From: an uncultured Myxococcales bacterium
GTDB taxonomy: Bacteria; Myxococcota_A; UBA9042; CAIXZC01
NCBI GenBank assembly: GCA_903895725.1
Contig: CAITUV010000048.1
Span: 8,474-72,473 of the forward strand
Direction: 5' to 3'
DNA length: 64,000 nt
The notes below the pieces were generated by a model, which was given only the letters and a program-made list of their open reading frames with translations, was not told the origin of the DNA and searched no databases. Positions 38,531-63,998 of the stretch are shown here, piece after piece. A program made the position numbers and the translations under genes. Every line of letters begins with the position of its first letter. The stretch's first letter is position 1.

Positions 38531-38554
38531 CCGTTTCCGCTTGACACGAAACGG
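38531..38554 (+). promoter_or_regulatory. Inverted repeat CCGTTTC-(10)-GAAACGG with a perfect TTGACA hexamer in its loop, in the divergent intergenic region between the oxidoreductase and hisG.
   Basis: Perfect 7-bp stem. The TTGACA has no good -10 partner. Confidence 0.2.
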
Positions 38555-38610
38555 GCCGAATGCACACACTTGGCTCCTGGAAGGCGGCTCTAGACCGTGA
38601 AGGAGGCCCC

Positions 38611-39486: not shown

Positions 39487-39495
39487 GGTGGGGGA

Positions 39496-44447: not shown

Positions 44448-44466
44448 GCTCAGGGACGCGTGATGG

Positions 44467-44496
44467 GGGCCGGACGAGAGCGTTCCGGTCCGGCCC
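44467..44496 (+). terminator. Strong intra-operon hairpin GGGCCGGAC-(12)-GTCCGGCCC followed by 'GCTTTG', between hisAIE and hisD.
   Basis: Perfect 9-bp GC-rich stem. It may be a partial terminator, an attenuator or an mRNA-stability element. Confidence 0.3.
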
Positions 44497-44527
44497 GGCT
44501 TTGAAGTAGTCATCGGGAGGCAGGTAC

Positions 44528-45799
44528 ATGAGCGGCTCGGTGCTGCGCAGGGTAGGGGCTGGCGAGGTCGAAGCGCTTCGAAGAAATGCCGTGGATCCGC
44601 GGGCGCTTGCCATTGCCTCCGAGATCGTGTTGAGGGTGGAGCGTGGTGGGTTCGAAGCCGCCGTTCTCGAGGCTCGCCGCCTTGGGGACCTCCCGGACGG
44701 TGCTCCGCCGATCCTCGATGCCGCCGCCTGCAGGGCCGCACTGCTGGCGCTGCCAGGGGAGCAGCGCTCTCTCCTGGAACGAACCGCCTCTAGGATCCGG
44801 GAGTTTGCGTCAGCGCAGCGCAGAGCGTTGATTTCCATGTCCGTGAGCGTGCCGGGCGGTACCGCCGGACACGAGGCCGTTCCGGTCGAGACCGCAGGCT
44901 GCTACGCACCGGGGGGGCGGTTTCCGCTGCCTTCGTCGGTGCTGATGACCGCAGTGACCGCACGGGTCGCCGGGGTGGAGAAGGTGTGGGTGGCTTCCCC
45001 GAAGCCGACTGCCGTCACGATGGCCGCGTGCGCCGTGGCGCAGGCCGACGGGCTCGTGACGTTCGGAGGGGCTCAGGCCGTCGCCCTGCTGGCTCTCGGC
45101 GGCGGCCCCGTGCCCCGCTGCGACGTGATCGTGGGTCCGGGAAACGCGTACGTGACCGCCGCCAAGTACCTGGTTTCCGCCTATGCGGGAATCGACATGC
45201 TGGCAGGACCTTCGGAGCTGGTCGTGGTGGCCGACGGGAGTGCCCGGCCTGACGTGATCGCGATGGATCTGTTGGCCCAGGCCGAGCACGATCCGGATGC
45301 CCTGCCGGTGCTGGTTGTGTTCGATGAGCGGGTTGCCATGGAAGTCGAGCGGGCATTGGCCGAGGCCCTTGCGGAGCTCGACACTCGGGAGACTGCATCG
45401 GCCTCCATCGCCAGGGGGTTCTGGGTGCTGGCCGACTCGATGGAGCAGGCTGCCTCCGTCTGCAATGCTCTGGCACCGGAGCATCTGCAGCTCTCCATGG
45501 CGGATCCGGCGGGCCTCCGATCCCTGTTGCGTCACTACGGGGCGCTCTTCCTGGGGGACGGTGCCTGCGAAGTCCTGGGGGACTACGGCATCGGGCCCAA
45601 TCATGTGCTGCCGACAGGCGGCGCCGCCCGACGCTCCGGAGGGCTGTCGGTGTTCAGCTTTCTGAGGCTGCGAACCTGGTTGCGGGTGGAAGATTCTCTT
45701 GCCGCGGACCCGGTGCTGGCGGACGCAGAGGCATTGGCGAAGCTGGAGGGGCTGTCGGCGCACTCGTTGGCGGCTTGGCTCAGGCGGCTCCCGAGCTGA
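44528..45799 (+). CDS. hisD: Histidinol dehydrogenase
   Basis: RBS GGGAGG. 'DMLAGPSELVVVAD...QAEHDP...GPNHVLPT'. Confidence 0.9.
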   Translation: MSGSVLRRVGAGEVEALRRNAVDPRALAIASEIVLRVERGGFEAAVLEARRLGDLPDGAPPILDAAACRAALLALPGEQRSLLERTASRIREFASAQRRALISMSVSVPGGTAGHEAVPVETAGCYAPGGRFPLPSSVLMTAVTARVAGVEKVWVASPKPTAVTMAACAVAQADGLVTFGGAQAVALLALGGGPVPRCDVIVGPGNAYVTAAKYLVSAYAGIDMLAGPSELVVVADGSARPDVIAMDLLAQAEHDPDALPVLVVFDERVAMEVERALAEALAELDTRETASASIARGFWVLADSMEQAASVCNALAPEHLQLSMADPAGLRSLLRHYGALFLGDGACEVLGDYGIGPNHVLPTGGAARRSGGLSVFSFLRLRTWLRVEDSLAADPVLADAEALAKLEGLSAHSLAAWLRRLPS

Positions 45800-49119: not shown

Positions 49120-49923
49120 ATGTTTCAGCGAAGCGAGCTGCTGCTCGGTCCGACGACCGTGAAGGCACTCTGGGGCACCCGGGTGATTCTGTTCGGCGTC
49201 GGCGGGGTCGGGAGCTGGTGCGCTGAGGCGCTGGTAAGGAGCGGTGTTGGTCACCTGGCGATCGTGGACTCGGACAGCGTCTGTATCACAAACGTGAACC
49301 GGCAGCTCCAGGCGACGCCGGCGACGGTAGGCCGCATCAAGGTGGAGGTGCTGGCCCGACGACTGAGGGAGATAAGCCCCGACGCGGAGATCGTGGTCTT
49401 CCCGATTGCCTATGACGAGAGCACTTCGGACTCGTTCGGACTCGAGCGCTACGACTATGTGCTCGATGCCATCGATTCCCTGAGTCACAAGCTGGGGCTC
49501 ATCCGGAAGGCATTGTCGCTCGGGTGTCGGCTGTACTCGTCCATGGGCGCTTCGGCACGGCTCGACCCGACGAAGGTGAGGGTCGGGTCCCTCTGGAAGA
49601 CCCGAGATTGCCCGCTCGCCATGCGGGTTCGCAAGCGGCTCAGGAAGCACGGAATCACGACTGCTCTCACGGTGGTATACAGCGAAGAGCTGCCGATGGA
49701 GAGCCTGGAAACCTCGGATTGCGGGACTCCTGCCTGCCACTGTCCACGGCGGGCCATCGCTGAATCGGGCGAAGAGGTGGAGGGGCACGAATGGTGCAGC
49801 TCCAAAGCGTACATCAACGGTTCAATCATGCCGGTCGTGGCGACGTTCGGGATGTCCCTGGCGAGTCTCGTGATACGGGATGTGCTGGAGCGCAGCGGCG
49901 GCAGAGAGGGGAAGGGCCCATGA
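49120..49923 (+). CDS. tcdA: tRNA threonylcarbamoyladenosine dehydratase (ThiF/MoeB-family E1-like, TcdA/CsdL)
   Basis: 'ILFGVGGVGSWCAEALVRSGVGHLAIVDSDSVCITNVNRQ'. An alternative GTG start lies at 49090. The track start at 48703 overlaps the minus-strand gene. Confidence 0.8.
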   Translation: MFQRSELLLGPTTVKALWGTRVILFGVGGVGSWCAEALVRSGVGHLAIVDSDSVCITNVNRQLQATPATVGRIKVEVLARRLREISPDAEIVVFPIAYDESTSDSFGLERYDYVLDAIDSLSHKLGLIRKALSLGCRLYSSMGASARLDPTKVRVGSLWKTRDCPLAMRVRKRLRKHGITTALTVVYSEELPMESLETSDCGTPACHCPRRAIAESGEEVEGHEWCSSKAYINGSIMPVVATFGMSLASLVIRDVLERSGGREGKGP

Positions 49924-52088
49924 GTCGGCTTGCTGCGGTTTTGTGCATCGTGGCGGCTCTCGCGATTCCGGCAACGGCGGAGGCTGTGACGATGAGCCTC
50001 GTCAGTGAGAGCCAGCCGTTCCCCGGAATCACGCTGAAGCAGTACAAGACGACCTCGCCCAAGACCAACTGTTGGGCGGTGCTCGTCGACCTGTGCGCCG
50101 ACTACGTCCACGTGGATGCGACGCCGGATCCTTCCGGACCCAAGACCGTGGCGCAGTTCGGACAGGACTCGGGCGTCCAGGTGGCGGTCAACGGGGACTT
50201 CTACAAGTCGCCACCGGCCCACGTATACGGCGCCGCTGTCGGGGGAGGGATTCAGTGGCCGTCGGTCAAGCAGGGCTTTGACCCGAGCTACTCCGGCGAG
50301 TGGTTTTTCATGAAGTACGGCTGGCTCGCATTCGGACACGACCTGGTCGAGCACAACCACACGAAATGGGTCAAGCAGAACGTCGCCGGGCTGACCTCTG
50401 GCTGGGAGCCGACCGACGTGGTGACGTCGATTCCGGCTGGAACGCTGGCGCTGGTCAGCGGGTTCTCCCAGCTTGTGATTGATGGGGAGCCGGTGACCTG
50501 CCCGGACCCGACGGCCAGCAGCTGTTTCCCGGACCGCTCCGACATGCGGGATCGTCACCCTCGCACCGCCATGGGAATCACGGAAGATCGAAAGACCTTC
50601 ATCCTGTTCGTGGTCGACGGTCGGACCGATGTTTCCATCGGCATGTACGGGACCGAGCTGGCCGACGTGATGCACAAGCTGGGGGCGCACCAGGCCTTCA
50701 ACCTGGACGGTGGCGGGTCGAGCCAGCTCTGGGTGAAGGGCAAGGGGACGGTCAACGATGCCAACGGCAACAACAACGGCGGAGGCCTTCGCCCCGTGCT
50801 CAATCATTGGGGCGTTTTTGCAGGGCCCGCGAGCGGGAAGGCCAAGCGACCTGGCCATTGCGTGTCGAGCCCGGCATGCGCCGTGCTGCCTCCGGAAGGC
50901 GGTACGCTGGACGACTCCGGACCGTGTTTTGCTGCGTTTGGGACGCCGGAGTACTGGCGAACCGAGGCTGCTGGCTTCGAGGGGGGCCTGCACTGGACCA
51001 ATGCCTGGAAGACGACGGTCCCCGACAACTGGGCCTGGTGGCAGGTCCACCTGGCCGAGGGGGGTAAGTATCGGGTCGACTACTATGCGGTCCCTGAGTT
51101 CGCCGTGTTCAAGAAGACCCACTACGAGGTAAGGGCGTCGGGAACCTTGACGAAGCTCTCCGTGGATCAGTCGATTGCCGACGGTTGGACCGAGCTGGGG
51201 GAGTTCGACTTCTCGGCAGGCGGGGGGCAATGGGTGTCCGTCTTCGATGACACGCCGGCAACCGTTGCGGATGACCAGCACATCGTGGCGGATGCCATCC
51301 GACTGGTCCGCCTGGATCCGTGGTGTGGGAACGGGCAGTGCGACGGGACCGAGGAGTGCGGCTCGTGCGTCGAGGACTGCGGGGAGTGCCCCGAGCCTTG
51401 CGGCAACAGCGAATGCAAGGAGGGCGAGAGCTGCGAAACGTGCCCCGCCGACTGCGGAGACTGCCCCGAGAGCTGCGGCGACGGGTCGTGTGGGGCGGAG
51501 GAGAGCTGCAGCAGCTGCCCGGCTGATTGCGGGGAGTGCCCGGAAACATGCGGCAACGGGAGCTGCGCCTCGGGGGAGAGCTGCGAGAGCTGCCCCGAGG
51601 ACTGCGGGGAGTGCTCCGGCTCGTGCGGGAACGGTCTGTGCGACGCGTGGGAGAGCTGCGCCACCTGTCCGGCCGAGTGCGGCAACTGTCCCGATACCTG
51701 CGGCGACGGCCTGTGCGACGAGTGGGAGAACTGCGGAACCTGTCCGAAGGATTGCGGCTCCTGCGTTCCGGACGTTCAGGAAGCACGGCCCGAGAGCGAC
51801 ATTCAAAGCGAGCCCGAGCTGGTGCCGGAGACCCTCCCGGAAGCCGAGGTCCTTTGCGCCGGCGATGCCTGCCCCGTGCATGGTGACAGCGCGTCCTTTG
51901 AGGAGCCGTGGGAAGTGGCCCCGTCGGTCGAGCCGGCTCCGGAATCGAATGGCGATTCGGCGGGCAGCTGCAGTGCTGCGGTCCATCGACGCCCAGACAG
52001 CGGACCGGTCGCGCTCCTTGCTCTGGCCATGCTGCTCATCGCGATCATCCTGAGACGAAGGCCTTGCGGCGCTGGTGGAGCGGATTGA
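49920..52088 (+). CDS. Secreted protein with a phosphodiester-glycosidase (NAGPA 'uncovering-enzyme'-like) domain, a 6x25-aa CGxGxC-x-CPxDCGxC repeat array, a Pro/Glu linker, and a MYXO-CTERM-like C-terminal sorting signal
   Basis: ATGA overlap with tcdA. Signal peptide 'MSRLAAVLCIVAALAIPATAEA'. NAGPA-like 'GVQVAVNGDFY...RTAMGITEDRKTFILFVVDGR...AFNLDGGGSSQLWV'. Repeats 'CGNSECKEGESCETCPADCGDCPES'. C-terminal 'GSCSAAVHRRPDSGPVALLALAMLLIAIILRRRP'. Confidence 0.85.
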   Translation: MSRLAAVLCIVAALAIPATAEAVTMSLVSESQPFPGITLKQYKTTSPKTNCWAVLVDLCADYVHVDATPDPSGPKTVAQFGQDSGVQVAVNGDFYKSPPAHVYGAAVGGGIQWPSVKQGFDPSYSGEWFFMKYGWLAFGHDLVEHNHTKWVKQNVAGLTSGWEPTDVVTSIPAGTLALVSGFSQLVIDGEPVTCPDPTASSCFPDRSDMRDRHPRTAMGITEDRKTFILFVVDGRTDVSIGMYGTELADVMHKLGAHQAFNLDGGGSSQLWVKGKGTVNDANGNNNGGGLRPVLNHWGVFAGPASGKAKRPGHCVSSPACAVLPPEGGTLDDSGPCFAAFGTPEYWRTEAAGFEGGLHWTNAWKTTVPDNWAWWQVHLAEGGKYRVDYYAVPEFAVFKKTHYEVRASGTLTKLSVDQSIADGWTELGEFDFSAGGGQWVSVFDDTPATVADDQHIVADAIRLVRLDPWCGNGQCDGTEECGSCVEDCGECPEPCGNSECKEGESCETCPADCGDCPESCGDGSCGAEESCSSCPADCGECPETCGNGSCASGESCESCPEDCGECSGSCGNGLCDAWESCATCPAECGNCPDTCGDGLCDEWENCGTCPKDCGSCVPDVQEARPESDIQSEPELVPETLPEAEVLCAGDACPVHGDSASFEEPWEVAPSVEPAPESNGDSAGSCSAAVHRRPDSGPVALLALAMLLIAIILRRRPCGAGGAD
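51324..51764 (+). repeat. Six tandem 75-bp (25-aa) coding repeats, CG(N/D)GxCxxxExCxxCPxDCGxCPxx
   Basis: Periodicity visible at both DNA and protein level. Confidence 0.7.
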
Positions 52089-52142
52089 CAACGGGCTTGC
52101 GCGTGTGGTTTGCTGGCAGGAAGGTTGACGGTGGAGGTCGGC

Positions 52143-55100
52143 ATGATCGCACGGAAGCACTTCTGGCTCGTTGCTTCGCTCCTGTTTTCTGCCGGATGCG
52201 GCGGCGGGGGAGAGATCATCTCGATCGAGGATGTTGCGCTGGACCAGGCGGGAGAGACTGCGGACGCGGTCATGGCTCCCGAGGTCTCCGAGGCCGCGGC
52301 GGACCTCGTCCCCATCCCGGATGCGACACCCGAAGCAGCAGTCGATGCCACGCTGCCGGACGGCTGGGTCGAGCCCGGCGCGTTTGGAGCCCCGTGCTTT
52401 GGCGGGACCGATTGTGCCTCAGGGCTCTGCATCCGGACGACGGCCGGCATGCAGTGCACGGGGCCGTGCGTCGACGAGTGCCCGCAGGGGTTCAAGTGCG
52501 TTTCGTACGAGGGAGGCGGGCCGGACATCATGTTCGTGTGCGTCGATCCGTTCCTGACCCTGTGCCGTCCCTGCTCGACCAATGCGGACTGCCAGGGCAA
52601 CGAGGATGCGTGGGCGGGGGAGCGGTGTGCGTCCTACGGTGCTGCCGGCAGCTTCTGCTCCATGCCGTGTGCGCAGGTGGACGACTGTCCGGCAGGCTAC
52701 CTCTGCGAGGAGACCGTGGATTCAAGCGGGGCATCGTCGCTCCAGTGCGTGCTGGCCGAGGGCGAGTGCGAATGCCCGCAGTGGTTTGCGGACGAGGGGG
52801 CTTCGACCTCGTGCTTCGTGGAGAACGAGTGGGGAACGTGCTCCGGTACGCGGGCCTGCACGGCAGCGGGGCTGGCGGCGTGCACGGCAGCGGTCCCGGC
52901 CAAGGAGAGCTGCAACGGGCTCGACGATGACTGCGACGGCCAGGACGACGAGGAGACTGCAGGCGGAACCTGCCCCGTCGTCAACGAGCTCGGCACCTGC
53001 CCGGGCACCACGCTCTGCCTGGACGGAACCGAGACCTGCCAGGGCGCTGCCGCGGCCCCGGAGCAGTGCGACGGGTTGGACAACAACTGTAACGGTACCA
53101 AGGACGAGGGGTTCCCCGATGCAGACGGGGACGGGACCGCAGATTGCCTGGAGAACGACAAGGACAACGACCTGGTGCCGGACTACCTCGACAACTGCCC
53201 GTCGGTGGCCAACTCGGAGCAGAAAGACTTCGACCTGGATACCCTGGGCGATGCGTGCGATCCCGACGACGACGGCGACAAGACCGGGGATGCAACGGAT
53301 TGTGCCCCGCTCGACGACAAGGTGTACCCCGGTGCGACCGAGACCTGCGACGGCAAGGACAACGACTGCAACTACGTTGTGGACGAAGGGTTCCCGGATG
53401 CCGACGTCGACGGCTGGAAGGACTGCACCGACCCGGACGACGACAACGACGGCAGCGCGGATGCTGCAGACTGTATGCCGCTTGACGCGGAGGCTCACCC
53501 CGGTGCAGTCGAGACCTGCAATGGCAAGGACGACGACTGCGACTTTGCCATCGACGAGACCTTTCCCGATCTGGATGGCGACGGACAGGCGGACTGCGTG
53601 GACAGCGACGTCGACGGCGACGGTCTCGGCAACGGCGACGACAACTGCCCCCAGGTCGCCAACGCGGATCAGACCGACCTCGACGGCGACCAGGTAGGCG
53701 ATGCCTGCGACCCGGACAAGGACGGCGACGCCATCCCCGAGCTTGCGGACAACTGCCCGCTTACCAAGAACCCGGCCCAGGCCGATACCGACCAGGATGG
53801 ACAGGGCGATGCCTGCGACGATGACGACGACGGCGACGGCTACGGCGACGGCGCCGACAACTGCCCGCTTGCCAAGAACCCGTCCCAGGCCGACCTCGAC
53901 CAGGATGGCGTCGGAGACGCGTGCGAGGGGGATCTGGACGGTGACGGTACTCCGGATTCCCTCGACTGTGCGCCGCTGAACGCCACCGTGCACCCCGGGG
54001 CATTCGAGGCCTGTAACGGCGCGGACGACAACTGCAATGGAACCGTGGACGAGGGGGCACCGGACACGGACTTCGACGGTTTCAAGAACTGTGTCGACCC
54101 GGACGATGATGGGGACGGCGACCCGGATGACGCGGACTGTGCGCCGCTCAACCTTGCGGTGCACCACGCTGCGGTCGAGAGCTGCAACGCCATCGACGAT
54201 GATTGCGACGGCCAGATCGACGAGGGGCTCGGGGCACTTTCGTGCGGGAAGGGCGTGTGCGCTCACAAGATTCCCGCCTGTCTCGACGGCAAGCAGCAGA
54301 CTTGCGATCCATTCCAGGGAATCCAGGAAGAAGTGTGCGACGGCAAGGACAACGATTGCGATGGGTTGACGGACGAGGACCAGGGCAAGCTGACGTGCGG
54401 CCTCGGGACGTGCGTGCACACCGTACCCGCCTGCCAGGAGGGGAAGGACAACGTGTGCGACCCCGCAGCCGGTGCCGTCCAGGAAGTGTGTGACGGCAAG
54501 GACAACGACTGCGATGGGGCGGTGGACGAGGAGCTGGGACAGCTCGCCTGCGGCAAGGGCGTCTGCTTCCATACGGTCAAAGCCTGCATCGGCGGAGAGC
54601 CTCAGCCATGCGAACCGTTCCAGGGAGCTTTGCCCGAAGCCTGTGACGGGCTGGACAACGACTGCGACGGAAGCGTCGACGAGAATCTGGGGGAGACATC
54701 CTGCGGCCTGGGTCCCTGCGAGCACACGGTCCCCTACTGTGCCGGGGGCAAGGTGCAGCAGTGCAACGCGTTCGAGGGCGCTGCCGTCGAGGCCTGCGAC
54801 AGCGTGGACAACGACTGCGACGGGCTGGTCGACGAGGACATGGGGTTTGCGAGCTGCGGTCTGGGCGTCTGCTTCCACATCGTCAAGCTCTGCTCCGGCG
54901 GGGTGCTCCAGGTGTGCGATCCGCTGGAGGGCGCTGCCGGGGAGGCGTGCGACGGCGTGGACAACGACTGCGATGGCATCGCCGATGACGGGTTGGGCGA
55001 CATCACCTGCGGCCTGGGGGAGTGCGTCCACACGGTTCCCGTCTGCAAGGAGGGCAAGCAGAACAGCTGTGATCCGCTCGAGGGGGAATCCCCCGAGGCG

Positions 55101-55955
55101 TGCGACGGCAAGGACAACGATTGCGACGGTCAGACGGACGAGTCCTTCGCCGACCAGGACGGCGACGGCCAGGCAGACTGCGTCGATCTCGACGACGATG
55201 GCGACGCGGATCCGGATGGGACGGACTGTGCACCGCTCGATCCGACCATCGGCTCCAACCAGAAGGAGAAGTGCTTCGACGGCAAGGACAACGACTGCGA
55301 CGGAAGCACCGACGACGATCCGGAGTGCATTCTCAAGAGCTGCGCCGAGCTCCTGGCCTCGAACCCCGCACTGCCGTCGGGGACCTACACGATTGACCCG
55401 GACGGCGGGGGCGGGAAGCCCTCGTTCGCCGCGTGGTGCGAGATGGCGCTGGACGGAGGGGGCTGGACCCTGGTCTGGAAGCACTCCTACTACGAAGTGG
55501 GGGCACCGACGGACACCATGCGCTTCTACAGCACCAGCGCAAAGGAGTGCAAGGACACGACGGCCGGATGGTGCAATGTGCCGGGCAAGCTGTCCGTTGG
55601 CAAGACGCAGCAGCTCGTCATCGCCACCTACCAGGGGACGACCGTTTACGCTTACAAGGGGGACTTGAATCCCAAGATCGACTCGAGCTGGGAAGGCGCC
55701 ATACTCAAGAACGCAACCAGCCTGGTCGACAAGTGCGTCAACAACGTGGGAGTGGCCCCGGAGCCCGAGGTGGGAGGGCATGCGATGCCCGGCATCACGT
55801 TCGACAAGGCGACCCCCAACGACTATGTGTCCAATTGCGATACGGATCGGTACGGAGGGGGCTCGGATTGCCGCTGGGAGAACTGCGGTCTGCCGGGAAA
55901 CATCGCCCCCTCGAGCACTCACGTGCAGATGACCGTGATGATCTACGTGCGCTGA
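52143..55955 (+). CDS. Cys-rich lipoprotein with a thrombospondin type-3 repeat array, seven or so MopE-like CDGKDNDCDG modules, and a C-terminal fibrinogen-related domain (FReD)
   Basis: RBS GGTGGAGG. 'MIARKHFWLVASLLFSAGCGGGG'. TSP3: 'DNCPSVANSEQKDFDLDTLGDACDPDDDGD', 'DNCPQVANADQTDLDGDQVGDACDPDKDGD', 'DNCPLAKNPSQADLDQDGVGDACEGDLDGDG'. FReD: 'CAELLASNPALPSGTYTIDPDGGGGKPSFAAWCEMALDGGGWTLVWKHSY...'. Confidence 0.85.
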   Translation: MIARKHFWLVASLLFSAGCGGGGEIISIEDVALDQAGETADAVMAPEVSEAAADLVPIPDATPEAAVDATLPDGWVEPGAFGAPCFGGTDCASGLCIRTTAGMQCTGPCVDECPQGFKCVSYEGGGPDIMFVCVDPFLTLCRPCSTNADCQGNEDAWAGERCASYGAAGSFCSMPCAQVDDCPAGYLCEETVDSSGASSLQCVLAEGECECPQWFADEGASTSCFVENEWGTCSGTRACTAAGLAACTAAVPAKESCNGLDDDCDGQDDEETAGGTCPVVNELGTCPGTTLCLDGTETCQGAAAAPEQCDGLDNNCNGTKDEGFPDADGDGTADCLENDKDNDLVPDYLDNCPSVANSEQKDFDLDTLGDACDPDDDGDKTGDATDCAPLDDKVYPGATETCDGKDNDCNYVVDEGFPDADVDGWKDCTDPDDDNDGSADAADCMPLDAEAHPGAVETCNGKDDDCDFAIDETFPDLDGDGQADCVDSDVDGDGLGNGDDNCPQVANADQTDLDGDQVGDACDPDKDGDAIPELADNCPLTKNPAQADTDQDGQGDACDDDDDGDGYGDGADNCPLAKNPSQADLDQDGVGDACEGDLDGDGTPDSLDCAPLNATVHPGAFEACNGADDNCNGTVDEGAPDTDFDGFKNCVDPDDDGDGDPDDADCAPLNLAVHHAAVESCNAIDDDCDGQIDEGLGALSCGKGVCAHKIPACLDGKQQTCDPFQGIQEEVCDGKDNDCDGLTDEDQGKLTCGLGTCVHTVPACQEGKDNVCDPAAGAVQEVCDGKDNDCDGAVDEELGQLACGKGVCFHTVKACIGGEPQPCEPFQGALPEACDGLDNDCDGSVDENLGETSCGLGPCEHTVPYCAGGKVQQCNAFEGAAVEACDSVDNDCDGLVDEDMGFASCGLGVCFHIVKLCSGGVLQVCDPLEGAAGEACDGVDNDCDGIADDGLGDITCGLGECVHTVPVCKEGKQNSCDPLEGESPEACDGKDNDCDGQTDESFADQDGDGQADCVDLDDDGDADPDGTDCAPLDPTIGSNQKEKCFDGKDNDCDGSTDDDPECILKSCAELLASNPALPSGTYTIDPDGGGGKPSFAAWCEMALDGGGWTLVWKHSYYEVGAPTDTMRFYSTSAKECKDTTAGWCNVPGKLSVGKTQQLVIATYQGTTVYAYKGDLNPKIDSSWEGAILKNATSLVDKCVNNVGVAPEPEVGGHAMPGITFDKATPNDYVSNCDTDRYGGGSDCRWENCGLPGNIAPSSTHVQMTVMIYVR
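53157..53950 (+). repeat. Thrombospondin type-3-like Ca-binding repeat array (D-x-D-x-D-G-x-x-D-x-C / DNCP-x-x-x-N-x-x-Q-x-D)
   Basis: Motif recognition; see the parent CDS. Confidence 0.7.
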
Positions 55956-55992
55956 GCAGAAGGTGACAGTCTTTCAACCGGGAGATGCCGTC

Positions 55993-58900
55993 ATGACCAC
56001 TCGCAAGCTGTTTCGGATTACGCTCCTGAGCGTTCTCGTTCCGGCCGTCGGATGCAGCACTTCAGGCAACACGGTGGAGAAACCGGAGCCGGATCTCGGC
56101 ATCGAGGTCGTCGACTCCAGCGTCGCTCCGGAAGTCGTACCCCCGGATGCCATGGAAGTCGAGCCCGAGGTGCCTCAGGTCGAGTTGCTCGTTGAGGCCG
56201 TGGAGGAATCGGGTGGCCCGAAGTGCGCACCGGGCGAAGGGTGCTTCCTGGACCCATGCCAGGAGAACGATTCCTGCCAATCGGGCTGGTGCGTGGACCA
56301 CATGGGGGCCGGAGTCTGCACCATTGCCTGCGAGGAGGAGTGCCCTCCCGGCTGGTCGTGCCAGCAGATCGGCTCGGGTCCCGACGTGAACTACGTCTGC
56401 ATCTCGAACCACGCAAACCTTTGCCGGCCTTGCGGCAGCGGGGACAACTGCAAGAGCCCGGGGGGTGCGGAGGACGTGTGCGTGGACTACGGTGCGGAGG
56501 GCAGCTTCTGCGGGGGAACCTGCAACAGCGACGAGGATTGCCCCTGGGGTTTCTCGTGCATCGAAGCCTCCACGGTGGATGGAATCGAAGTGAAGCAATG
56601 CGTGGCCGATGCGGGAGTCTGCCCGTGTACCGAAAAGTCCGTGAGCCTGGCATTGTGGACCCCTTGCCAGAGCAGCAACGAGCACGGCGTGTGCCAGGGG
56701 CAGAGGGTGTGTACCGAGGCCGGGCTGTCCGCGTGTGACGCGGCTGTGCCCGCACAGGAATCGTGCAACGGCATCGACGATGATTGCGACGGGGAGGTCG
56801 ACGAGCCGCAGCAGGTGGGCGGAGAGTATATTTCGCTCTGCTCGGACGGGAATTCGTGCACGAAGGATCAGTGCGCGGGCGTTGACGGCTGCACTAACAC
56901 GGCGCTCAACGAGGGCGAGTGCATGGACGGAGATGCGTGCACCGTGGGGGACCATTGCCAGGAAGGGACGTGCGTGGGGCTCCCTGTCGCCTGCGATGAC
57001 GGTGACCCCTGCACCGACGACCTGTGCGACGGACTGGGAGGCTGCAAGACCGAGTTCAACACCGCTGCGTGCGACGACGGAGATGCGTGCACGGTCGCGG
57101 ATGGCTGCGTCGAGGGGGTGTGCGGCGGCGTTGCCGTCCCTTGTGAGTGCCAGGCGGATTCCGATTGCCTGTCACTCGAGGATGGCGATGTCTGCAACGG
57201 GACACTGTTCTGCGACAAGGGGAAGTGGCCGTATCTTTGTGCGGTCGAGCCGGGAACCGAAATCACGTGCCCGCTGCCGCCGGCCGGGAAGGATGCGTTC
57301 TGCCAGGCCACTGCGTGCGACAGCGGGACCGGGAAGTGCTCAATCGTCCCGGCTCACGAGGGTTTCGCCTGTGATGACGGGGATGCCTGCACCATCGGTG
57401 AGCACTGCGCCTCCGGAACCTGCGGCCAGGGGGCCGGGCTCGGATGCCAGGACGACAATCCCTGCACGGACGACTCGTGCGAGCCTGGCGTCGGGTGCAT
57501 CCACAAGGCGAACGCTGCACCGTGCAGCGACGGGAACGTGTGCACGACGGACGACATGTGCTCGGCCACTGTATGCGTCGGCGGAGCGCTTCTGGCCTGC
57601 GACGACGGCTCGGTGTGCACCGGCACGGAGACCTGCGATCCTTCCGTCGGCTGCAAAGCGGGCCTCTCCCTCGTGTGCGATGATCAGGACGCCTGCAACG
57701 GAAAGGAGAGCTGCCACCCGGCCAAGGGGTGCCTGGCCGGAATCCCTCCGGTTTGTGACGACTTGAACCCATGTACCGACGACTCGTGCGACCCTCTGTC
57801 GGGGTGCGTTCACAAGGGGAATACCGCCGCCTGTGACGACGGCAACGCCTGCACCACGGGGGACAAGTGCTCGGCAGGAAGCTGCCTCGCCGGTGAGGCG
57901 ACAAGCTGCAACGACGGCAATCTCTGCACGACCGACACCTGCGTGCCGGCCAAGGGATGCATGTTCCTGCTCAACACGGTCCCGTGCGACGACGGCGACT
58001 TGTGCACGACCGGGGACCATTGCTCCCTGGGGGCCTGCATCTCGTCGGGGAAGCTGACCTGCAACGACGGGAATCCGTGCACGGCCGACTCGTGCACCCC
58101 CGGAGCCGGCTGCCAGTTCGTGCCCACCTCGGCCGCGTGCGACGACGGCAATGCGTGCACCTCGGGCGATGCCTGCACCAAGGGCCAGTGCCTCGGGCCG
58201 GACGTGGTGAGCTGCGACGACGACAATGTCTGCACGAAGGACTTCTGCTCCCCGTTGACCGGCTGCGGGCACAGCCCTCTGGCCGGGCCGTGTGAGGACG
58301 GGACCGAGTGCAGCGTCGGGGATACCTGCCAGAACGGAGTGTGCGTGGCCGGGCCACCGCTCGCCTGCGACGATGGGAACCAGTGCACCGTCGACGTCTG
58401 CGACCCCAAGCTGGGGTGCGTGTACAAGGCATTCGTGGGAGGCTGCGACGACGGAAACCCGTGCACCCTGGTGGATGTGTGTCAGGGCACGGTCTGCGCA
58501 CCCGGGTTGCCCAAGGACTGCAACGACGACAACCAGTGCACTACGGACACCTGCGACCCGGCCAAGCTGTGCGTGAACAGCCCGAAGGCCGGCAACTGCG
58601 ACGACAGCAACGCGTGTACGACGGGAGAGGCCTGCCAGGCGGGCGTCTGCAAGGGGGGCACCCCCCTGGACTGCAACGATGGGAAGCCGTGCACGACCGA
58701 CTCGTGCGACCCCCTCCTGGGGTGCGGACACATCGACACTGTCCCGTGCTGCGGGAATGCCAAGCTCGAGGCGGGCGAGGAGTGCGACGACGGAAACATC
58801 GTGGGCGGGGACGGATGCGAGCCTGACTGCAAGCAGTTCACCCCGGTCAGCGTGACGTTCAACAACTGTGGGCAGACGGGCCCGTCGGGGCCAAACCAGA

Positions 58901-59682
58901 GCCAGTGCAACAGCGCCTACTCGGGCAACCCGCTCCTCAACGGCAAGGTGACCGTCACTGCCGGCATCCAGTTCTGGACCGTGCCGTACACCGGGACCTA
59001 CCGGATCGAGGCTTTCGGAGCCAGGGGCGGCTGCAACGGCGGCAACGGTGCGCGGATGCGGGGCGATTTCGCCCTGACTCAGGGCACCCAGCTCAAGATT
59101 CTGGTCGGACAGCAGGGATCGGCTGCCCCCGCAAGCGTGGGCAACGGAGGTGGCGGTGGGACGTACGTGGCGAAGGCCGACAATGCCCCCATCATCGTTG
59201 CGGGCGGCGGTGGAGGAACGGGGCACGATTGCTACGCGGACTACGACATGAGCGGAGTCACCGGCATCGATGGAATCAAGGGCAAGTACGAGACCGCCGG
59301 GCTGGGCGGAGTGAACGGACAGGGCGGCGGATACGGGCTGACCACCCAGGGCGTTCCCAACGCCGGCGGTGGCGGCGGCTTCTACGGGGACGGCGGGAGC
59401 ATCGGACATGCCAATGGCGGGAAGGCCTTCGTGAACGGAGGCGTGGGCGGCTCCACGACCGGAGGATTCGGCGGCGGCGGCGGCTCGGACCAGTTCATCT
59501 ACGGCTGCGGCGCATCGCCACACGGCGGCAGCGGCGGCGGAGGCTACTCGGGCGGCGGCGGCGGCGCAACGAACTGCAACGGCCCGGGCGGTGGCGGCGG
59601 CTCCTACAACAACGGTGCCAACCCGTCCAACTCAGCTGGCGCCAATTCGGGGCACGGCAGCGTGACCATCAATCGCATCTGA
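55993..59682 (+). CDS. Cys-rich lipoprotein with about 13 Dictyostelium-type (CTDC) repeats, one Myxococcus cysteine-rich repeat, and a C-terminal ALK/LTK-like glycine-rich (GlyR/TNF-like) domain
   Basis: 'MTTRKLFRITLLSVLVPAVGCSTSG'. CTDC: 'CDDGNPCTDDSC', 'CSDGNVCTTDDMC', 'CNDGNLCTTDTC', 'CDDGNQCTVDVC'. Myxococcus cysteine-rich repeat: 'CCGNAKLEAGEECDDGNIVGGDGCEPDC'. GlyR: 'FNNCGQTGPSGPNQSQCNSAYSGN...GIQFWTVPYTGTYRIEAFGARGG...LKILVGQQG...GGGGGTYVAK...IIVAGGGGG...GGFGGGGGS...GGGGYSGGGGG'. Confidence 0.85.
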   Translation: MTTRKLFRITLLSVLVPAVGCSTSGNTVEKPEPDLGIEVVDSSVAPEVVPPDAMEVEPEVPQVELLVEAVEESGGPKCAPGEGCFLDPCQENDSCQSGWCVDHMGAGVCTIACEEECPPGWSCQQIGSGPDVNYVCISNHANLCRPCGSGDNCKSPGGAEDVCVDYGAEGSFCGGTCNSDEDCPWGFSCIEASTVDGIEVKQCVADAGVCPCTEKSVSLALWTPCQSSNEHGVCQGQRVCTEAGLSACDAAVPAQESCNGIDDDCDGEVDEPQQVGGEYISLCSDGNSCTKDQCAGVDGCTNTALNEGECMDGDACTVGDHCQEGTCVGLPVACDDGDPCTDDLCDGLGGCKTEFNTAACDDGDACTVADGCVEGVCGGVAVPCECQADSDCLSLEDGDVCNGTLFCDKGKWPYLCAVEPGTEITCPLPPAGKDAFCQATACDSGTGKCSIVPAHEGFACDDGDACTIGEHCASGTCGQGAGLGCQDDNPCTDDSCEPGVGCIHKANAAPCSDGNVCTTDDMCSATVCVGGALLACDDGSVCTGTETCDPSVGCKAGLSLVCDDQDACNGKESCHPAKGCLAGIPPVCDDLNPCTDDSCDPLSGCVHKGNTAACDDGNACTTGDKCSAGSCLAGEATSCNDGNLCTTDTCVPAKGCMFLLNTVPCDDGDLCTTGDHCSLGACISSGKLTCNDGNPCTADSCTPGAGCQFVPTSAACDDGNACTSGDACTKGQCLGPDVVSCDDDNVCTKDFCSPLTGCGHSPLAGPCEDGTECSVGDTCQNGVCVAGPPLACDDGNQCTVDVCDPKLGCVYKAFVGGCDDGNPCTLVDVCQGTVCAPGLPKDCNDDNQCTTDTCDPAKLCVNSPKAGNCDDSNACTTGEACQAGVCKGGTPLDCNDGKPCTTDSCDPLLGCGHIDTVPCCGNAKLEAGEECDDGNIVGGDGCEPDCKQFTPVSVTFNNCGQTGPSGPNQSQCNSAYSGNPLLNGKVTVTAGIQFWTVPYTGTYRIEAFGARGGCNGGNGARMRGDFALTQGTQLKILVGQQGSAAPASVGNGGGGGTYVAKADNAPIIVAGGGGGTGHDCYADYDMSGVTGIDGIKGKYETAGLGGVNGQGGGYGLTTQGVPNAGGGGGFYGDGGSIGHANGGKAFVNGGVGGSTTGGFGGGGGSDQFIYGCGASPHGGSGGGGYSGGGGGATNCNGPGGGGGSYNNGANPSNSAGANSGHGSVTINRI
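56839..58735 (+). repeat. Array of about 13 Dicty_CTDC-like repeats (C-x-D-x-N-x-C-T-x-D-x-C, about 48 aa period)
   Basis: See the parent CDS. Confidence 0.7.
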
Positions 59683-59687: not shown

Positions 59688-59705
59688 GTCCCGCGATCAC
59701 GGGAC
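59688..59705. terminator. Hairpin GTCCCG-cgatca-CGGGAC between convergent gene ends. It overlaps the stop codon of the minus-strand gene.
   Basis: Perfect 6-bp stem. Confidence 0.2.
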
Positions 59706-62700
59706 GTAGCAGAGGGTTCCTTCGGGCACGTATCCAAGCGCCTGCGCTTCGCTCCACTCCTGCTGGCTGGTGGACACGAAGTGGTCGGAGGCTGCAACAC
59801 TGTATAGGCGGCGCAGCTCCTTGGATGCCTCGGGAATCGGGTTGGCCGCGCAATAGCCCAGCACCCCCTCGTCCTGGTAGGCGGGAGCGCCTTCGTTGCC
59901 GTCCAGGCTCTGGAGGTGATCGAAGCAGCCGCTGCAGTAGAGCTGATGCAGCGCCACGAGCCCCGGGGCCGGTCCGTCGAACAGTGTGAAGTGCTGTCCC
60001 TCGAAGGCGTACCCGGCAGGCGCAGTCGTGTCGGACTTGAACATGTGGTCCGAGTCGCCGCCCTTGTTGCCGTAGAAGCGATAGATGGGGTGCGTCCCGG
60101 GCAGACATGGCAGCTTCTCGTGCTGGCACCCGGCTGCACCGGCGCAGGTATCCATGGTGCACGGATCGCCGTCGTCGCAGTCAGCGTCCTTTCCACATCC
60201 TGGCGCCCCGTTGGCGAACACGCGCACGCGGGCAACCACGCGCACGTTCCCATCGGTATCGGAGGCGGCAATTTCCAGCAGGTGAGGGCAGGGGGACCAG
60301 TCTCCGAGCGGCACGTCCGCCTCGAACCCCACCTGGTTGCACATCGTGTACCCGGGGTAGACCTGGCAGACATCGGGCCGCTGGGTATTGAGCGGAAGCG
60401 AGGCGACCTGCACACCGTCCCTGCGCAGTGCCAGCGAAGCGATTCCCTTGTTGTCCAACGCCCAGCCGGTCACGTGCAGCGTCCCGGAGACGGCCGCATC
60501 CATCTTGGGCGCGTCCAGGGCACCGAACGGGGGCAGCTTGGCATCAAGTGCAGCGGCCTCGGACGCAATCGTTCCGAACGCACCCAGGATCAGGTAGGCC
60601 CTGGCCTTGACCTTGCCGAACGCAGGCAGAGCGAACGAGAACTGCGAGCGAACGTTGTTGAACACCCCGAGCTTCTGCCAGCCCTGGAAGCCGGTCAGCC
60701 GGTTCTCATAGTAGATGCCTACGCCGTAGTCCTTGGACGCGTTCTGCAGCGCAACCCAGCCGCCGGGGCTGGTGAAGTTCTTGAAGTAGAAGCCATCGTT
60801 GCCCGGCCCGTCGACGATGATCTGCTGGCCGTTGGAATCGAGCAGCACCTTGAGGTCCGCCGTTCCACCGGCTCCGTAGACGGCATAGAGCGTTGGGAAC
60901 TCCTGTCCCGTGGCCGGGTGGTCCAGGTCGGACAGGTTTTCCACCGTCATCTTCATCTCGACCACGTGGGTGGCCACGAATCGGAGCCGCTGGGTGTAGG
61001 AGACGTCGCTCTTCATCGCCTTCTTGCCCGGGTCCGAGCAGCCGCCATTCGCACAGGTCGGCTCTTTCCAGTCGGGGTTCCAGAAGAGCGGGCGTACGCC
61101 GGCTTCCAGGATGCCGGGGGCGACGTTGATCCACTCGGTGCCGGAGCCGATGTTGCACTCGTTGCCCCCCTGGACGGGATCCCACCCGAGGTAGGTGATG
61201 CTGGACGGGCACGCCGCCCCCGGATTCGATTGGCAAGTGGCATTCCAGGCGCACCCCTGCATCGCACGAAGCGGATCATAAAGGGCGATCTGGACTTCGC
61301 GGCCGGTATCGTTGGCGTCGATGGTGTTGGTCGTGTTCATTCCCGGCTTCCCCTTGGCCAGGCCGAAGAAGACGATCGTGGAACCCCATTCCCGCCGCGT
61401 GCCCACCTTGATGTAGGAAGTCGGGTCGTGGACATAGTCATCGGTGAAGCCGCCCTCCTTGACCGTTTCGGCAGGGCCCGCTGGCGACAGTGCCCCAAGG
61501 GGATCTTCGGACACGGGCTCGGGCTTGGGAACGTCGATGCAGCCTGCCGCAAAGATGCAGGCTCCTTCCTGGCACACGTAGTCGGGAGGGCAGGCGCCGC
61601 ACGAGCCTGCGCACCCGTCATCTCCGCACTGCTTGCCTCCGCACTGGGGAACGCAGGGGGCCTGCTTGCACGTGCCGCCCTCGCAATCCAGGCCCGGTGG
61701 ACATGCGCCGCAGAAGCCTCCGCAGCCGTCGTCACCGCACTGCTTCCCCTCACACAGCGGTGTGCAGGTGTCCGCAGCCAGGTCGGCCGCCGCATCGGGT
61801 GACTGGCTGTCCTCAACGTCCGCTGGCAGTGTATCCGTGATGAGGGTGTCGGTCGGTCCTGGCGTTTCATCCTTGGGGCTGCCGTCCGGCCCGGCGTCGG
61901 GCTCGGGGGCGTCAAGCAGCTTGATATCGCCAGGGGCGTCCGCAGCCGCAGAGTCGAACGACGTGTTGACCTGATCCTTCGGTTCGTATGAATCATCCGG
62001 AACCATGGCCTCGGGCTCTGGCTGCCGGTCTCCGCTCCCATCCGGGACGTGGGAGGGCACGTCGGCGCCGGGGAAGAGCAGGACATCGGCATCCGCCGAG
62101 CTGCCCCCGGACACGCTTCCGCAGGCCGCAAGGAACAGGGCCGCGAGGAGAAGGCCAAATCCCCCTCTCCAGTGACCGCAGCCTGTCCCGGCTTGTGCCC
62201 CCCGACCACAGCGGGCCCGACTTCCCGAGCCTGGACCACCAATGCCCGAACCTCCTGCCACAGGAGCACGAAAGCGACGAATCACGCCGAGCATTGCCCC
62301 CCCGAGGAGGAGCAGGATCCAAACCGACGCGCCCTCGGAGGGCCCAGGTGCCGCCGAGCAGCCGCCGCTCTTCTTGCCAGAGCCGCCGTCGCCGCTGTGC
62401 CCATCGGCTGGAACCGTGAACCATCCGTCGCCTGCGCCCCCGATTTCCGCGGTGCCATCCTGATTCTCGAGTTCCGACTTGCCGGCCATGCCATCTGCCG
62501 GGAGCACCTCCCCCGCGGCGGAATCCAGCGCCGGGATTTCCGGACCCGGTCCGGAATCCGGGGCCGGCCCCGGCAGGTCGGCGACAAGGTCGGGCTGGCC
62601 CGCACCATCCGGGGCCTCGACGTCCTGCGGCATCCAGTCCTCCTCCTCTACGACATCCGGCGGAGGGCAGGTCGAGACGCACTCTCCCCAGCTCCCGTCG

Positions 62701-63998
62701 GTGCAGAGCTGCAGGCCGTTGGCGCAATCACCTCCTGGTGGAATGCAGGCCTGAATCTGACCGTTGGGGCAAGCGGGGCACCCCTCGTCGACCTGCCCGT
62801 CACAGTCGTTATCCTGCCCGTCGCAGACCTCGTCCGGTGCGGGACCGCACGTGCCGCAGGCGTTGAGCAGCCCCTCGTCGACCTTTCCGTCGCAGTCGTT
62901 GTCCTGTCCGTCGCAGACCTCGTCCGGTGGAGGACCGCACTTGCCGCAGGCGTTGAGCAGCCCCTCGTCGACCTGCCCGTCACAGTCGTTGTCTTTTCCG
63001 TCGCAGACCTCGTCCGGTGGAGGACCGCACTTACCGCAGGCGTTGACCAATCCCTCGTCGACCTGCCCGTCGCAGTCGTTGTCCTGTCCGTCGCAGACCT
63101 CGTCCGGCGCCGGACCGCACGTGCCGCAGGCGTTGAACAATCCCTCGTCGGCCTGCCCGTTGCAGTTGTCGTCCGCTGCGTTGCATACCTCCTGCGCGCC
63201 GGGCTTCACCTGCGGGTTGGCATCGTTGCAGTCACCGCCCGTGGTCTTGGTGAACGGAGCGAGCGGCTCGTAGAGGCACTTGCCCGTGTCGCTGCCTCCG
63301 GCACCGTCGCCGTCTGCATCCTTGTAGTAGGGCGTGCACCAGGTCCCCTGCTTGGGCCATCCGGCGAAGTCGAACACCCCGGCCAGGTCAGCCAGTCCCT
63401 TCTGGCCGACCTGCTTCTCGGTGAATTCCCCGGAGTTCAGGAAGTTGTCGCGCACCGTGCTGCGCAACGTACCCTGGGCCAGCATTCCCATGTACGTTGC
63501 AAATCCTTCGTCGTCCGGCTTTCGAAACAGGATCTGCCAGTAGAGCTCGGTCACGAACTGATTGTCGGAGACCTTGGACATGGCTTCCGGTGAGTTGATG
63601 AATTCGTCGCGGGCCTGCGCCCTGGTGCCGCCTCCGTTCAGGAAGTCCTGGTAGTTCTTCACACCACCGGCATCCGGGTCCCGATGGAGGTAGTGCTTGT
63701 AGAGGAAGGCAATGTACCCGTCGTTGGAAAGGACGTCCTTGGCCTCGGGACTCTCCAGGATGTCATCTCTCACCGCGGAGGGCGGATTGCCGGCAAGCAT
63801 GTCTCCGTAGCTCTGCTTTCCGCTCTTGTCGGGAAGCCTCCCCATGACGTAGCGGTACGCCGCATTGAGGTACGAACCCTTGAACCGGAACTTGATGGCC
63901 CAGGAGGCGGTGAGCTGGATGTACTGCGTCCCGTACTCGAAGCTGTGTGCGATGTCGGTGCTCTCGTGCCACTCGTTCCAGGTTTCGACCGCGGTCAC
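59697..63998 (-). CDS. Very large multidomain secreted protein (5' partial; N-terminus lies beyond the window end). It contains DUF4214-like repeats, four near-identical MopE-like CDGQDNDCDG modules, an internal MYXO-CTERM-like segment followed by a lipoprotein-signal-like segment, CxGKQCGDDGCGG repeats, a large unassigned domain, one CTDC repeat, and two C-terminal DUF5648-like (YRFY..GDH.F) repeats.
   Basis: A single open frame of 1433+ codons on the minus strand. 'FLYKHYLHRDPDAGGVKNYQDFL', 'ELYWQILFRKPDDEGFATYMGML' (DUF4214-like). 'EVCDGQDNDCDGQVDEGL' x4. 'GGCSAAPGPSEGASVWILLLLGGAMLGVIRRFR' then 'GFGLLLAALFLAACGS'. 'PIYRFYGNKGGDSDHMFKS', 'LRRLYSVAASDHFVST'. It may actually be two genes; see findings. 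Confidence 0.75.
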   Translation of the reverse strand: MTAVETWNEWHESTDIAHSFEYGTQYIQLTASWAIKFRFKGSYLNAAYRYVMGRLPDKSGKQSYGDMLAGNPPSAVRDDILESPEAKDVLSNDGYIAFLYKHYLHRDPDAGGVKNYQDFLNGGGTRAQARDEFINSPEAMSKVSDNQFVTELYWQILFRKPDDEGFATYMGMLAQGTLRSTVRDNFLNSGEFTEKQVGQKGLADLAGVFDFAGWPKQGTWCTPYYKDADGDGAGGSDTGKCLYEPLAPFTKTTGGDCNDANPQVKPGAQEVCNAADDNCNGQADEGLFNACGTCGPAPDEVCDGQDNDCDGQVDEGLVNACGKCGPPPDEVCDGKDNDCDGQVDEGLLNACGKCGPPPDEVCDGQDNDCDGKVDEGLLNACGTCGPAPDEVCDGQDNDCDGQVDEGCPACPNGQIQACIPPGGDCANGLQLCTDGSWGECVSTCPPPDVVEEEDWMPQDVEAPDGAGQPDLVADLPGPAPDSGPGPEIPALDSAAGEVLPADGMAGKSELENQDGTAEIGGAGDGWFTVPADGHSGDGGSGKKSGGCSAAPGPSEGASVWILLLLGGAMLGVIRRFRAPVAGGSGIGGPGSGSRARCGRGAQAGTGCGHWRGGFGLLLAALFLAACGSVSGGSSADADVLLFPGADVPSHVPDGSGDRQPEPEAMVPDDSYEPKDQVNTSFDSAAADAPGDIKLLDAPEPDAGPDGSPKDETPGPTDTLITDTLPADVEDSQSPDAAADLAADTCTPLCEGKQCGDDGCGGFCGACPPGLDCEGGTCKQAPCVPQCGGKQCGDDGCAGSCGACPPDYVCQEGACIFAAGCIDVPKPEPVSEDPLGALSPAGPAETVKEGGFTDDYVHDPTSYIKVGTRREWGSTIVFFGLAKGKPGMNTTNTIDANDTGREVQIALYDPLRAMQGCAWNATCQSNPGAACPSSITYLGWDPVQGGNECNIGSGTEWINVAPGILEAGVRPLFWNPDWKEPTCANGGCSDPGKKAMKSDVSYTQRLRFVATHVVEMKMTVENLSDLDHPATGQEFPTLYAVYGAGGTADLKVLLDSNGQQIIVDGPGNDGFYFKNFTSPGGWVALQNASKDYGVGIYYENRLTGFQGWQKLGVFNNVRSQFSFALPAFGKVKARAYLILGAFGTIASEAAALDAKLPPFGALDAPKMDAAVSGTLHVTGWALDNKGIASLALRRDGVQVASLPLNTQRPDVCQVYPGYTMCNQVGFEADVPLGDWSPCPHLLEIAASDTDGNVRVVARVRVFANGAPGCGKDADCDDGDPCTMDTCAGAAGCQHEKLPCLPGTHPIYRFYGNKGGDSDHMFKSDTTAPAGYAFEGQHFTLFDGPAPGLVALHQLYCSGCFDHLQSLDGNEGAPAYQDEGVLGYCAANPIPEASKELRRLYSVAASDHFVSTSQQEWSEAQALGYVPEGTLCYVP
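62781..63150 (-). repeat. Near-perfect 90-bp tandem repeat x4.1 encoding the 30-aa unit 'LNACG(T/K)CGP(A/P)PDEVCDG(Q/K)DNDCDG(Q/K)VDEG'
   Basis: Units begin at 62781, 62871, 62961 and 63051 (plus strand) with >90% identity. Read directly from the sequence. Confidence 0.85.

Follow-up and report, generated by a model that had tools for sequence, protein, structure and literature searches.

Introduction

Proteins of the MYXO-CTERM pathway are exported via Sec, held in the inner membrane by the helix of their tag, and probably lipidated on the tag cysteine; myxosortase (MrtX), a CPBP protease, cuts them, and type II secretion transfers them to the cell surface (PMC11980579). TraA, one such protein, was processed in an E. 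coli host as well (PMC11980579). Internal MYXO-CTERM motifs are rare; one example is MXAN_5598 of Myxococcus xanthus (mBio 2025, PMC11980579). Here we describe an open reading frame (ORF) in which a MYXO-CTERM tag is located in the middle of the polypeptide and is followed by a second sorting signal, that of a lipoprotein. The ORF is found on the minus strand of a 64,000-nucleotide stretch of contig CAITUV010000048.1 of an uncultured Myxococcales bacterium; this whole stretch is called the window, and all coordinates refer to it. In the interpretation that we favour and consider reasonably probable, the upstream part of the ORF (unit 1) is a MYXO-CTERM-tagged surface protein with DUF4214 and MopE domains, the downstream part (unit 2) is a lipoprotein of the DUF5648 family, and the two form a real, inherited fusion in which each half has its own sorting signal and the single precursor is cut on both sides. 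It is highly probable that two once separate genes have truly been fused in frame here and that the fusion is inherited.

Similar to the window ORF, MXAN_5598 carries its MYXO-CTERM tag mid-ORF, was read by its authors as a fusion of two genes, and has an N-terminal part that was proposed to be processed and surface-anchored (PMC11980579). Its downstream part, however, is an outer-membrane β-barrel with an OmpA domain, whereas unit 2 of the window ORF is a lipoprotein whose lipobox is intact. The same paper treats MXAN_5598 as an oddity and describes no second signal or lipobox after the tag, no shared Arg cluster and no hairpin (PMC11980579), while the junction type of the window recurs in at least 15 protein clusters, multi-unit chains included. 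HVO_0405 of Haloferax volcanii, a substrate of ArtA, also has an internal tag after gene fusion, and cleavage at this tag was shown experimentally (PMC7157517). It differs from the window ORF in that the tag is an archaeal PGF-CTERM tag cut by ArtA and in that the fusion is strain-specific rather than inherited; the part of its description considered here contains no second export signal after the tag (PMC7157517).

Canonical MYXO-CTERM proteins (TIGR03901/TIGR03382, e.g. TraA) share with the window ORF the Cys signature, the helix and the Arg cluster, a Myxococcota-type organism and a Cys-rich, adhesin-like cargo, but their tags are at the true C-terminus, 0–16 residues before the stop codon, whereas the basic cluster of the window tag is followed by 856 residues. 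Lipoprotein precursors of the Lgt/LspA pathway (PS51257) have the same positive region, hydrophobic region and L-A-A-C lipobox, and stand-alone relatives carry the homologous signal at their N-terminus, whereas the signal in the window lies 600+ residues inside the polypeptide. The window ORF agrees with the sequence definitions of both classes, and its tag is not C-terminal, nor its lipoprotein signal N-terminal. In the literature searched, we found neither tags with a lipobox or signal peptide immediately behind them, nor a shared Arg cluster, nor chains of several units. Internal MYXO-CTERM motifs as such are already known; it is their recurrent pairing with a lipobox that appears to be undescribed.

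Organization of the fused ORF

The ORF (59697–63998, minus strand) consists of 1433 codons and a stop codon, is uninterrupted, and has its 5′ end beyond the window edge (position 64000); residues are numbered here from the first codon inside the window. The preliminary description of this DNA had noted an uninterrupted minus-strand frame across the junction, a MYXO-CTERM-like terminus inside it, a lipoprotein signal with a charged region, a hydrophobic region and a lipobox after this terminus, and two internal start codons, ATG 62294 and GTG 62261. All of these are borne out by the data below. The peptide quoted there, ...GSGKKSGGCSAAPGPSEGASVWILLLLGGAMLGVIRRFRAPVAGGSGIGGPGSGSRARCGRGAQAGTGCGHWRGGFGLLLAALFLAACGS..., is the translation of 59697–63998 on the minus strand and contains zero stops.

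Unit 1 is partial in the window (residues 1–547; 62358–63998, minus strand) and is composed of three DUF4214 domains, five MopE-type Cys-rich repeats and an acidic linker, which leads to the tag Cys (Pfam matches PF13946, 4.6e-27, and PF11617, 3e-23). The tag (residues 545–577; 62268–62366, minus strand), as delineated with TIGR03901 and hydropathy, has the tripartite MYXO-CTERM layout of a Cys motif, a transmembrane helix and an Arg-rich cluster. These are GGC(547)SAAPG, with the invariant Cys547 encoded by 62358–62360, the helix VWILLLLGGAMLGVI (residues 559–573; 62280–62324), and the basic cluster RRFR (residues 574–577; 62268–62279). TIGR03901 matches residues 545–575 with 20.4 bits in the whole ORF and 22.4 bits in an excerpt, which narrowly clears the curated cutoff of 20.

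The tag is followed by a Gly/Arg-rich spacer of 36 residues (residues 578–613; 62160–62267, minus strand, 108 nt), which is predicted to be a cytoplasmic loop, and then by a second hydrophobic segment that ends in a lipobox (residues 614–626, FGLLLAALFLAAC; 62121–62159, minus strand; hydropathy 2.27). Arg residues precede the hydrophobic region of this lipoprotein signal. Its lipobox, LAAC, contributes Cys626 (62121–62123), the predicted site of lipidation and of LspA cleavage. The lipobox was tested with a PROSITE PS51257-type pattern (six non-charged residues, then [LIVMFWSTAG]2-[LIVMFYSTAGCQ]-[AGS]-C), and the segment ...LLLAALFLAAC626 agrees with it. The position rule that belongs to the pattern places the Cys within ~35 residues of the N-terminus, with Lys or Arg near the start; here the Cys is residue 626 of the ORF and, counted from internal candidate starts, residue 41 (ATT), 47 (GTG 62261) or 58 (ATG 62294).

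Unit 2 (residues 626–1433; 59700–62123, minus strand) starts with an acidic linker, which is followed by two CxGKQCGDDGCGGxCGxC repeats, a conserved core, a weak Big_7 match that falls slightly short of the cutoff (22.1 vs 24.1 bits), a Dicty_CTDC repeat and a C-terminal DUF5648 domain, as assigned with Pfam. No Pfam family was found for the core, and no C-terminal sorting tag, PDB sequence match or NCBIfam family was found for unit 2.

Among the 15-residue segments of the entire 1433-residue ORF, only two are strongly hydrophobic on the Kyte–Doolittle scale, namely residues 559–573 (2.53) and 615–629 (2.27), with the next best at 1.51. The loop between them (residues 574–613, RRFR included) contains seven Lys or Arg and no Asp or Glu, and both outer flanks are acidic. 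Charge and hydropathy together suggest that the two segments and the +7 loop form a positive-inside membrane hairpin.

Stand-alone relatives of the two halves

The search with unit 2 produced 474 homologs, the best 120 of which are 469–1029 residues long. Most of these 120 (77) have their own lipobox within the first 60 residues, with a median Cys position of 21. The closest relative, P0011, is 83% identical to unit 2, is encoded by a stand-alone gene, and starts with MKLTT...LLLVLLAAAC. The lipobox segment of the window ORF is homologous in position to this and other bona fide N-terminal lipoprotein signals. The upstream neighbour of the P0011 gene is divergently oriented. Synteny of the closest stand-alone relatives (loci L001 and L002) was dropped as evidence on the junction: it is not conserved, and the upstream neighbours are divergent.

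The search with unit 1 was dominated by MopE repeats. Relatives in terms of architecture are P0218 and P0133 (DUF5010 and DUF4214), both of which end directly after a Cys/helix/basic tag; N-terminal signal peptides are present in these two and in P0153. The relatives of the window ORF belong to Myxococcales, Myxococcota or ‘Deltaproteobacteria’ metagenome-assembled genomes (MAGs), and an internal junction is present in none of the first 240 homologs retrieved with its two halves. Judging from these sequences, both halves are normally separate proteins and, historically, there were two genes.

Inheritance of the junction

An exact-sequence look-up of the window gene from ATG 62294 gave no record, and the source genome was absent from the protein, genome-contig and metagenome-contig collections searched. 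A metagenome scan identified contig Ga0233425_10002924 (L037) as a syntenic ortholog of the locus, in which the neighbouring convergent gene is 80% identical to that of the window. In L037, the tag, the spacer and the lipobox are again in one frame without a stop, reading ...SGGCSASKQAHGETVLLVAMLLVLLTAVRRRGYGPPATVSSDANGLAGDEMNDANWDTPGLGGRSTALRAALVLLLAIVLTAACGG..., and the lipobox has a Thr at position −3. The spacer DNA of L037 cannot be aligned with that of the window, and the distance from the basic cluster to the lipobox Cys is 51 residues in L037 and 48 in the window. In the core of unit 2, the nonsynonymous divergence (dN) between L037 and the window is 0.10 and the synonymous divergence (dS) is 1.0, giving a dN/dS of ~0.10. 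Unit 2 is thus under strong purifying selection, and hence the locus is not decaying.

Recurrence of the junction in other proteins

A scan of all fetched loci uncovered a 1247-codon open frame in a Myxococcales MAG (L025), which contains two internal junctions without a spacer, ...LLVFWRRRAILTLLPLLLVLGQGC... and ...LLAVRRRAPWLVAVLTVVLLAGC... The full L025 protein, P0241, is 1631 residues long, and its first junction is kept in a 70%-identical ortholog, P0242. Further internal junctions are found in P0243, P0244, P0246–P0249 and P0251, and the one in P0246, P0247 and P0248 is retained in all three, which are 60–71% identical. Alignment of 11 junctions, that of the window included, leaves only the Gly-Cys of the tag and the lipobox Cys as invariant columns. 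The window junction is a long-loop member of the set, with a Cys-to-Cys distance of 79 residues vs 37–64 in the other aligned junctions. It contains every element of the proposed tag-to-signal junction class, i.e. a Cys tag, a helix, a basic cluster, a second helix and a lipobox or signal cleavage site, all inside one ORF.

A profile of the 11 junctions, searched against 1.84 billion representatives (E ≤ 1e-3), matched 28 clusters, at least 15 of which have an internal full-length junction, in unrelated proteins. Where these junction proteins have names, the names carry a Myxococcales or MYXO-CTERM annotation. Some of them are multi-unit chains: P0327 has four units and P0330 three, and P0314 and P0334 are also chains. 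In these ORFs and in P0241/L025, near-identical or different units follow each other, and each tag is directly followed by the next signal peptide. For instance, P0314 is made up of two copies of a module consisting of a lipoprotein signal, a Kelch-like/Cys-rich domain and a tag. P0327 is encoded identically in two independent assemblies. The P0327 gene adjoins a type III secretion/flagellar-type ATPase cluster (SctL, ATPase, YscO).

The partners joined in this way are diverse and can be functionally linked. P0322 combines a BIM1-like copper factor with a Sco1/redoxin lipoprotein, P0328 a trypsin-like protease with an uncharacterised lipoprotein, P0251 an M23 peptidase with a PD40 propeller, and P0246–P0248 a Cys-rich upstream unit with TIG/FG-GAP proteins.

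The NCBIfam model NF058595 (‘lipo-invert putative C-terminal anchoring domain’) gives weak matches (10–16 bits, cutoff 37) over the helix, Arg cluster, helix and Cys of several junctions, and NF058597 (‘choice-of-anchor Z’) repeats are matched just downstream of the junction in P0246–P0248. The NF058595 model may describe a related arrangement. A search of the literature for ‘lipo-invert’, an internal lipobox, or a polyprotein with a lipobox and a sorting signal found nothing relevant.

Proposed origin and processing

In a lipoprotein signal, a basic region stays inside the cell and is followed by a helix and then by the lipobox Cys outside. The MYXO-CTERM tag and the lipoprotein signal are therefore topological mirror images, and joining them in frame would give a hairpin with a basic cytoplasmic loop and with both large domains outside the inner membrane. 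In the proposed mechanism, unit 1 would be exported via Sec by a presumed N-terminal signal outside the window, transfer would be stopped by the tag helix, and translocation would be restarted by the second helix, so that unit 2 would be exported as well. Lgt and LspA would lipidate Cys626 and cut in front of it, freeing unit 2 as an ordinary lipoprotein. On the other side of the hairpin, Cys547 would be lipidated and MrtX would cut after it, releasing unit 1 for surface display. The hairpin of ~78 residues would be discarded, and the outcome would be two separately lipid-anchored proteins from one precursor. Dual processing by myxosortase and Lgt/LspA is likely, if close to an even call. No CPBP protease (myxosortase) was found among the window ORFs scanned.

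As to the origin of the fusion, a single stop codon was probably lost between tandem genes in the same frame, and this loss would be tolerated because the topology stays valid. The window contains a gene pair that looks like the pre-fusion state. The upstream gene of this pair (49764–52088, plus strand; NAGPA and Golvesin_C) ends in ...GSCSAAVHRRPDSGPVALLALAMLLIAIILRRRPCGAGGAD and has a terminal Cys/helix/RRR tag, ...GSCSAAVHRR...IILRRRPCGAGGAD, directly before its stop codon; the tag is unrecognised by TIGR03901 and has only a weak match to GlyGly-CTERM (14.8 bits). The downstream gene (52089–55955, plus strand) encodes a large MopE/TSP3 lipoprotein (MIARKHFWLVASLLFSAGC) and is in the same frame, with a GGAGG followed by an ATG at ~52145. 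The sole separator of the two is the TGA at 52086–52088, and one point mutation would create a fusion like that of the window ORF. The presence of such a pair in the same window makes it plausible that the fusion arose by loss of one stop codon and that the spacer is former intergenic DNA.

A broader proposal, which we put forward tentatively and regard as somewhat doubtful, is that Myxococcota possess a general, selected secretory polyprotein system of the ‘beads-on-a-string’ type, in which one ORF strings together two, three, four or more units, each MYXO-CTERM-type tag being followed by the signal peptide of the next unit; tag and signal would share one Arg cluster in a disposable hairpin. 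Each hairpin would be flanked by a myxosortase cut and by a cut of LspA or signal peptidase I, and the products would be envelope proteins made in stoichiometric amounts and anchored separately. The window ORF would then be a young, long-loop member, soon after the loss of its stop codon.

If both signals work in one polypeptide, recognition of MYXO-CTERM by myxosortase needs no free C-terminus, and a lipobox does not have to be near the N-terminus for Lgt/LspA to use it. Gene-calling and annotation software built on the assumption of terminal tags would then mislabel such ORFs and miscount the surface proteins and lipoproteins of Myxococcota. The arrangement also suggests a simple evolutionary route: since the two signals mirror each other, loss of one stop codon between same-frame tandem genes in a high-GC genome could lead to a viable two-in-one precursor. 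The pairing of a copper factor with a Sco1-like redoxin hints that fusion can lock in the co-expression of linked envelope proteins.

The spacer and alternative explanations

An open spacer is unremarkable by itself, as 41% of shuffles of its 108 nt are free of in-frame stops, and it is open in all three frames. In the 35 terminal-tag proteins retrieved, the stop codon is located 0–16 residues past the basic cluster. The unusual feature of the window ORF is the absence of a stop after the tag, rather than the open spacer. A frameshift was rejected as its cause because, with three open frames, a single indel restores no nearby stop. No promoter-like or terminator-like site was found at the junction; the RNA fold z-score there is −1.46, which is not significant, and no Rfam family was found, the sole match being a chance miRNA far under threshold. 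An antisense ORF across the junction (61988–62419, plus strand) was rejected as a gene: its translation is Arg/Pro-rich, and it is coding-like over the spacer only, where its third codon positions fall on GC-rich second positions of the spacer.

Several observations weigh against a fusion with two processed halves. Codon usage is least coding-like in the spacer, where the GC content of third codon positions (GC3) has its minimum of 0.37 (codons 573–602), vs at least 0.63 elsewhere and 0.81 in the ORF overall. The spacer also contains an AGGAGG (62250–62255, minus strand) 7 nt before an in-frame ATT (62241–62243), at a frequency of this hexamer of only ~0.5 per kb per strand. Because of its non-coding-like GC3 and this Shine–Dalgarno-like motif, the spacer looks like former intergenic DNA, and synthesis of unit 2 mainly by internal initiation is conceivable; the AGGAGG–ATT may be what is left of the original start region of unit 2, perhaps with its ATG mutated to ATT, or may act weakly as an internal start. 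The spacer of L037 has an ATG with a GGGAG. Retention of an open, in-frame junction in one ortholog pair has a chance of ~0.13 (1/3 × 0.4) with neutral sites near saturation and is suggestive, not decisive. The signal peptide of unit 1 is only presumed, as the window does not reach the start of this protein; Lgt/LspA would have to accept a lipobox after more than 600 residues; and the membrane topology, the two cuts and what becomes of the products are all deduced from sequence. Finally, the tags of most other junctions score under the TIGR03901 cutoff (12.5–15.4 bits; that of P0251, 22.2) and are best called MYXO-CTERM-like.

The main alternative explanation is that the stop codon was lost while internal initiation was retained. 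Unit 2 would then be made mainly from a start in the spacer and exported by its own signal peptide, and the read-through fusion would be a tolerated by-product. In-frame starts near the junction are ATG 62294, GTG 62285, GTG 62261 and ATT 62243, and the candidates are the AGGAGG-N7-ATT at 62243 or GTG 62261 in the window and the ATG in L037. The low GC3 of the spacer (0.37–0.5) and the rarity of AGGAGG fit this explanation, the ATG after GGGAG in L037 would give a lipoprotein signal of 34 residues, and the gene pair at 52086–52145 displays the presumed ancestral order of tag, TGA, GGAGG and ATG. However, in the absence of a stop codon, ribosomes that finish unit 1 must enter unit 2, and the fusion is made anyway. 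The window spacer lacks an ATG, and ATT initiates only very weakly; compact junctions elsewhere share one Arg cluster and are so short that a ribosome-binding site would have to lie within the tag helix; and the frame is kept in both orthologs, which this explanation does not need. Internal initiation is not required, and we consider it rather unlikely to be the main source of unit 2. A hairpin that is never cut would explain the topology equally well: the ORF would then encode a single inner-membrane protein with a two-helix hairpin anchor and with both large domains in the periplasm, and cleavage at both sites is, after all, a prediction. We find this improbable. Across 11 diverged junctions, both signal-like motifs are retained, and the sole invariant columns are the Gly-Cys of the tag and the lipobox Cys, which is what functional lipidation and cleavage sites would lead one to expect; in the stand-alone relatives of either half, the corresponding signals are cleavable sorting signals; and published internal tags are processed (PMC7157517).

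It is very improbable that the open junction is an artefact or a sign of decay, i.e. that the stop codon is missing because of an error in sequencing or assembly or because of a recent inactivating mutation, with the locus now a pseudogene. The unusual composition of the spacer is in line with such an event, but the same open junction is present in an independent assembly of a related species (L037), unit 2 is under purifying selection, no frame holds a stop that a single indel could restore, and a like architecture occurs in many other assemblies, with P0327 recovered identically twice. The preliminary description had left the choice between a genuine fusion, a stop codon lost by pseudogenisation or sequencing error, and two tandem genes, and had suggested a comparison of orthologous loci. 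L037 and the recurrence of the junction decide for the first option, and the dN/dS and again L037 contradict the second. The phrase ‘two genes read as one’ is apt in the historical sense, given the stand-alone relatives of both halves, but not in the sense of an annotation or sequencing artefact. An uninterrupted ORF in orthologs was also what the preliminary description had named as a refutation of its two-gene reading; the syntenic L037 shows such an ORF, which counts against an artefact and for a one-ORF fusion.

Neighbouring genes

The gene convergent to the fused ORF (55963–59682, plus strand), with 14 nt between the two stop codons, encodes a 1239-residue lipoprotein with at least six Dicty_CTDC Cys repeats and a Gly-rich C-terminal domain (...GGGGSYNNGANPSNSAGANSGHGSVTINRI). 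Three further Cys-rich lipoproteins of ~1700–1900 residues with MopE repeats are encoded on the plus strand at 3335–8614, 8616–13661 and 19009–24651. Common to these three is a similar Gly-rich C-terminal region (...GGGGGGCGG[PA]S[IFY]...), which has no Pfam match or terminal sorting tag, and they may constitute a paralogous family with an uncharacterised C-terminal module. The context in 24284–35268 and 38545–45799 (both plus strand) is that of an ordinary chromosome and includes a nuo (NADH dehydrogenase) operon, a DEAD-box helicase, purH and a his biosynthesis cluster made up of hisG, a HisC-type aminotransferase fused to a HAD hydrolase domain, hisB and hisD.

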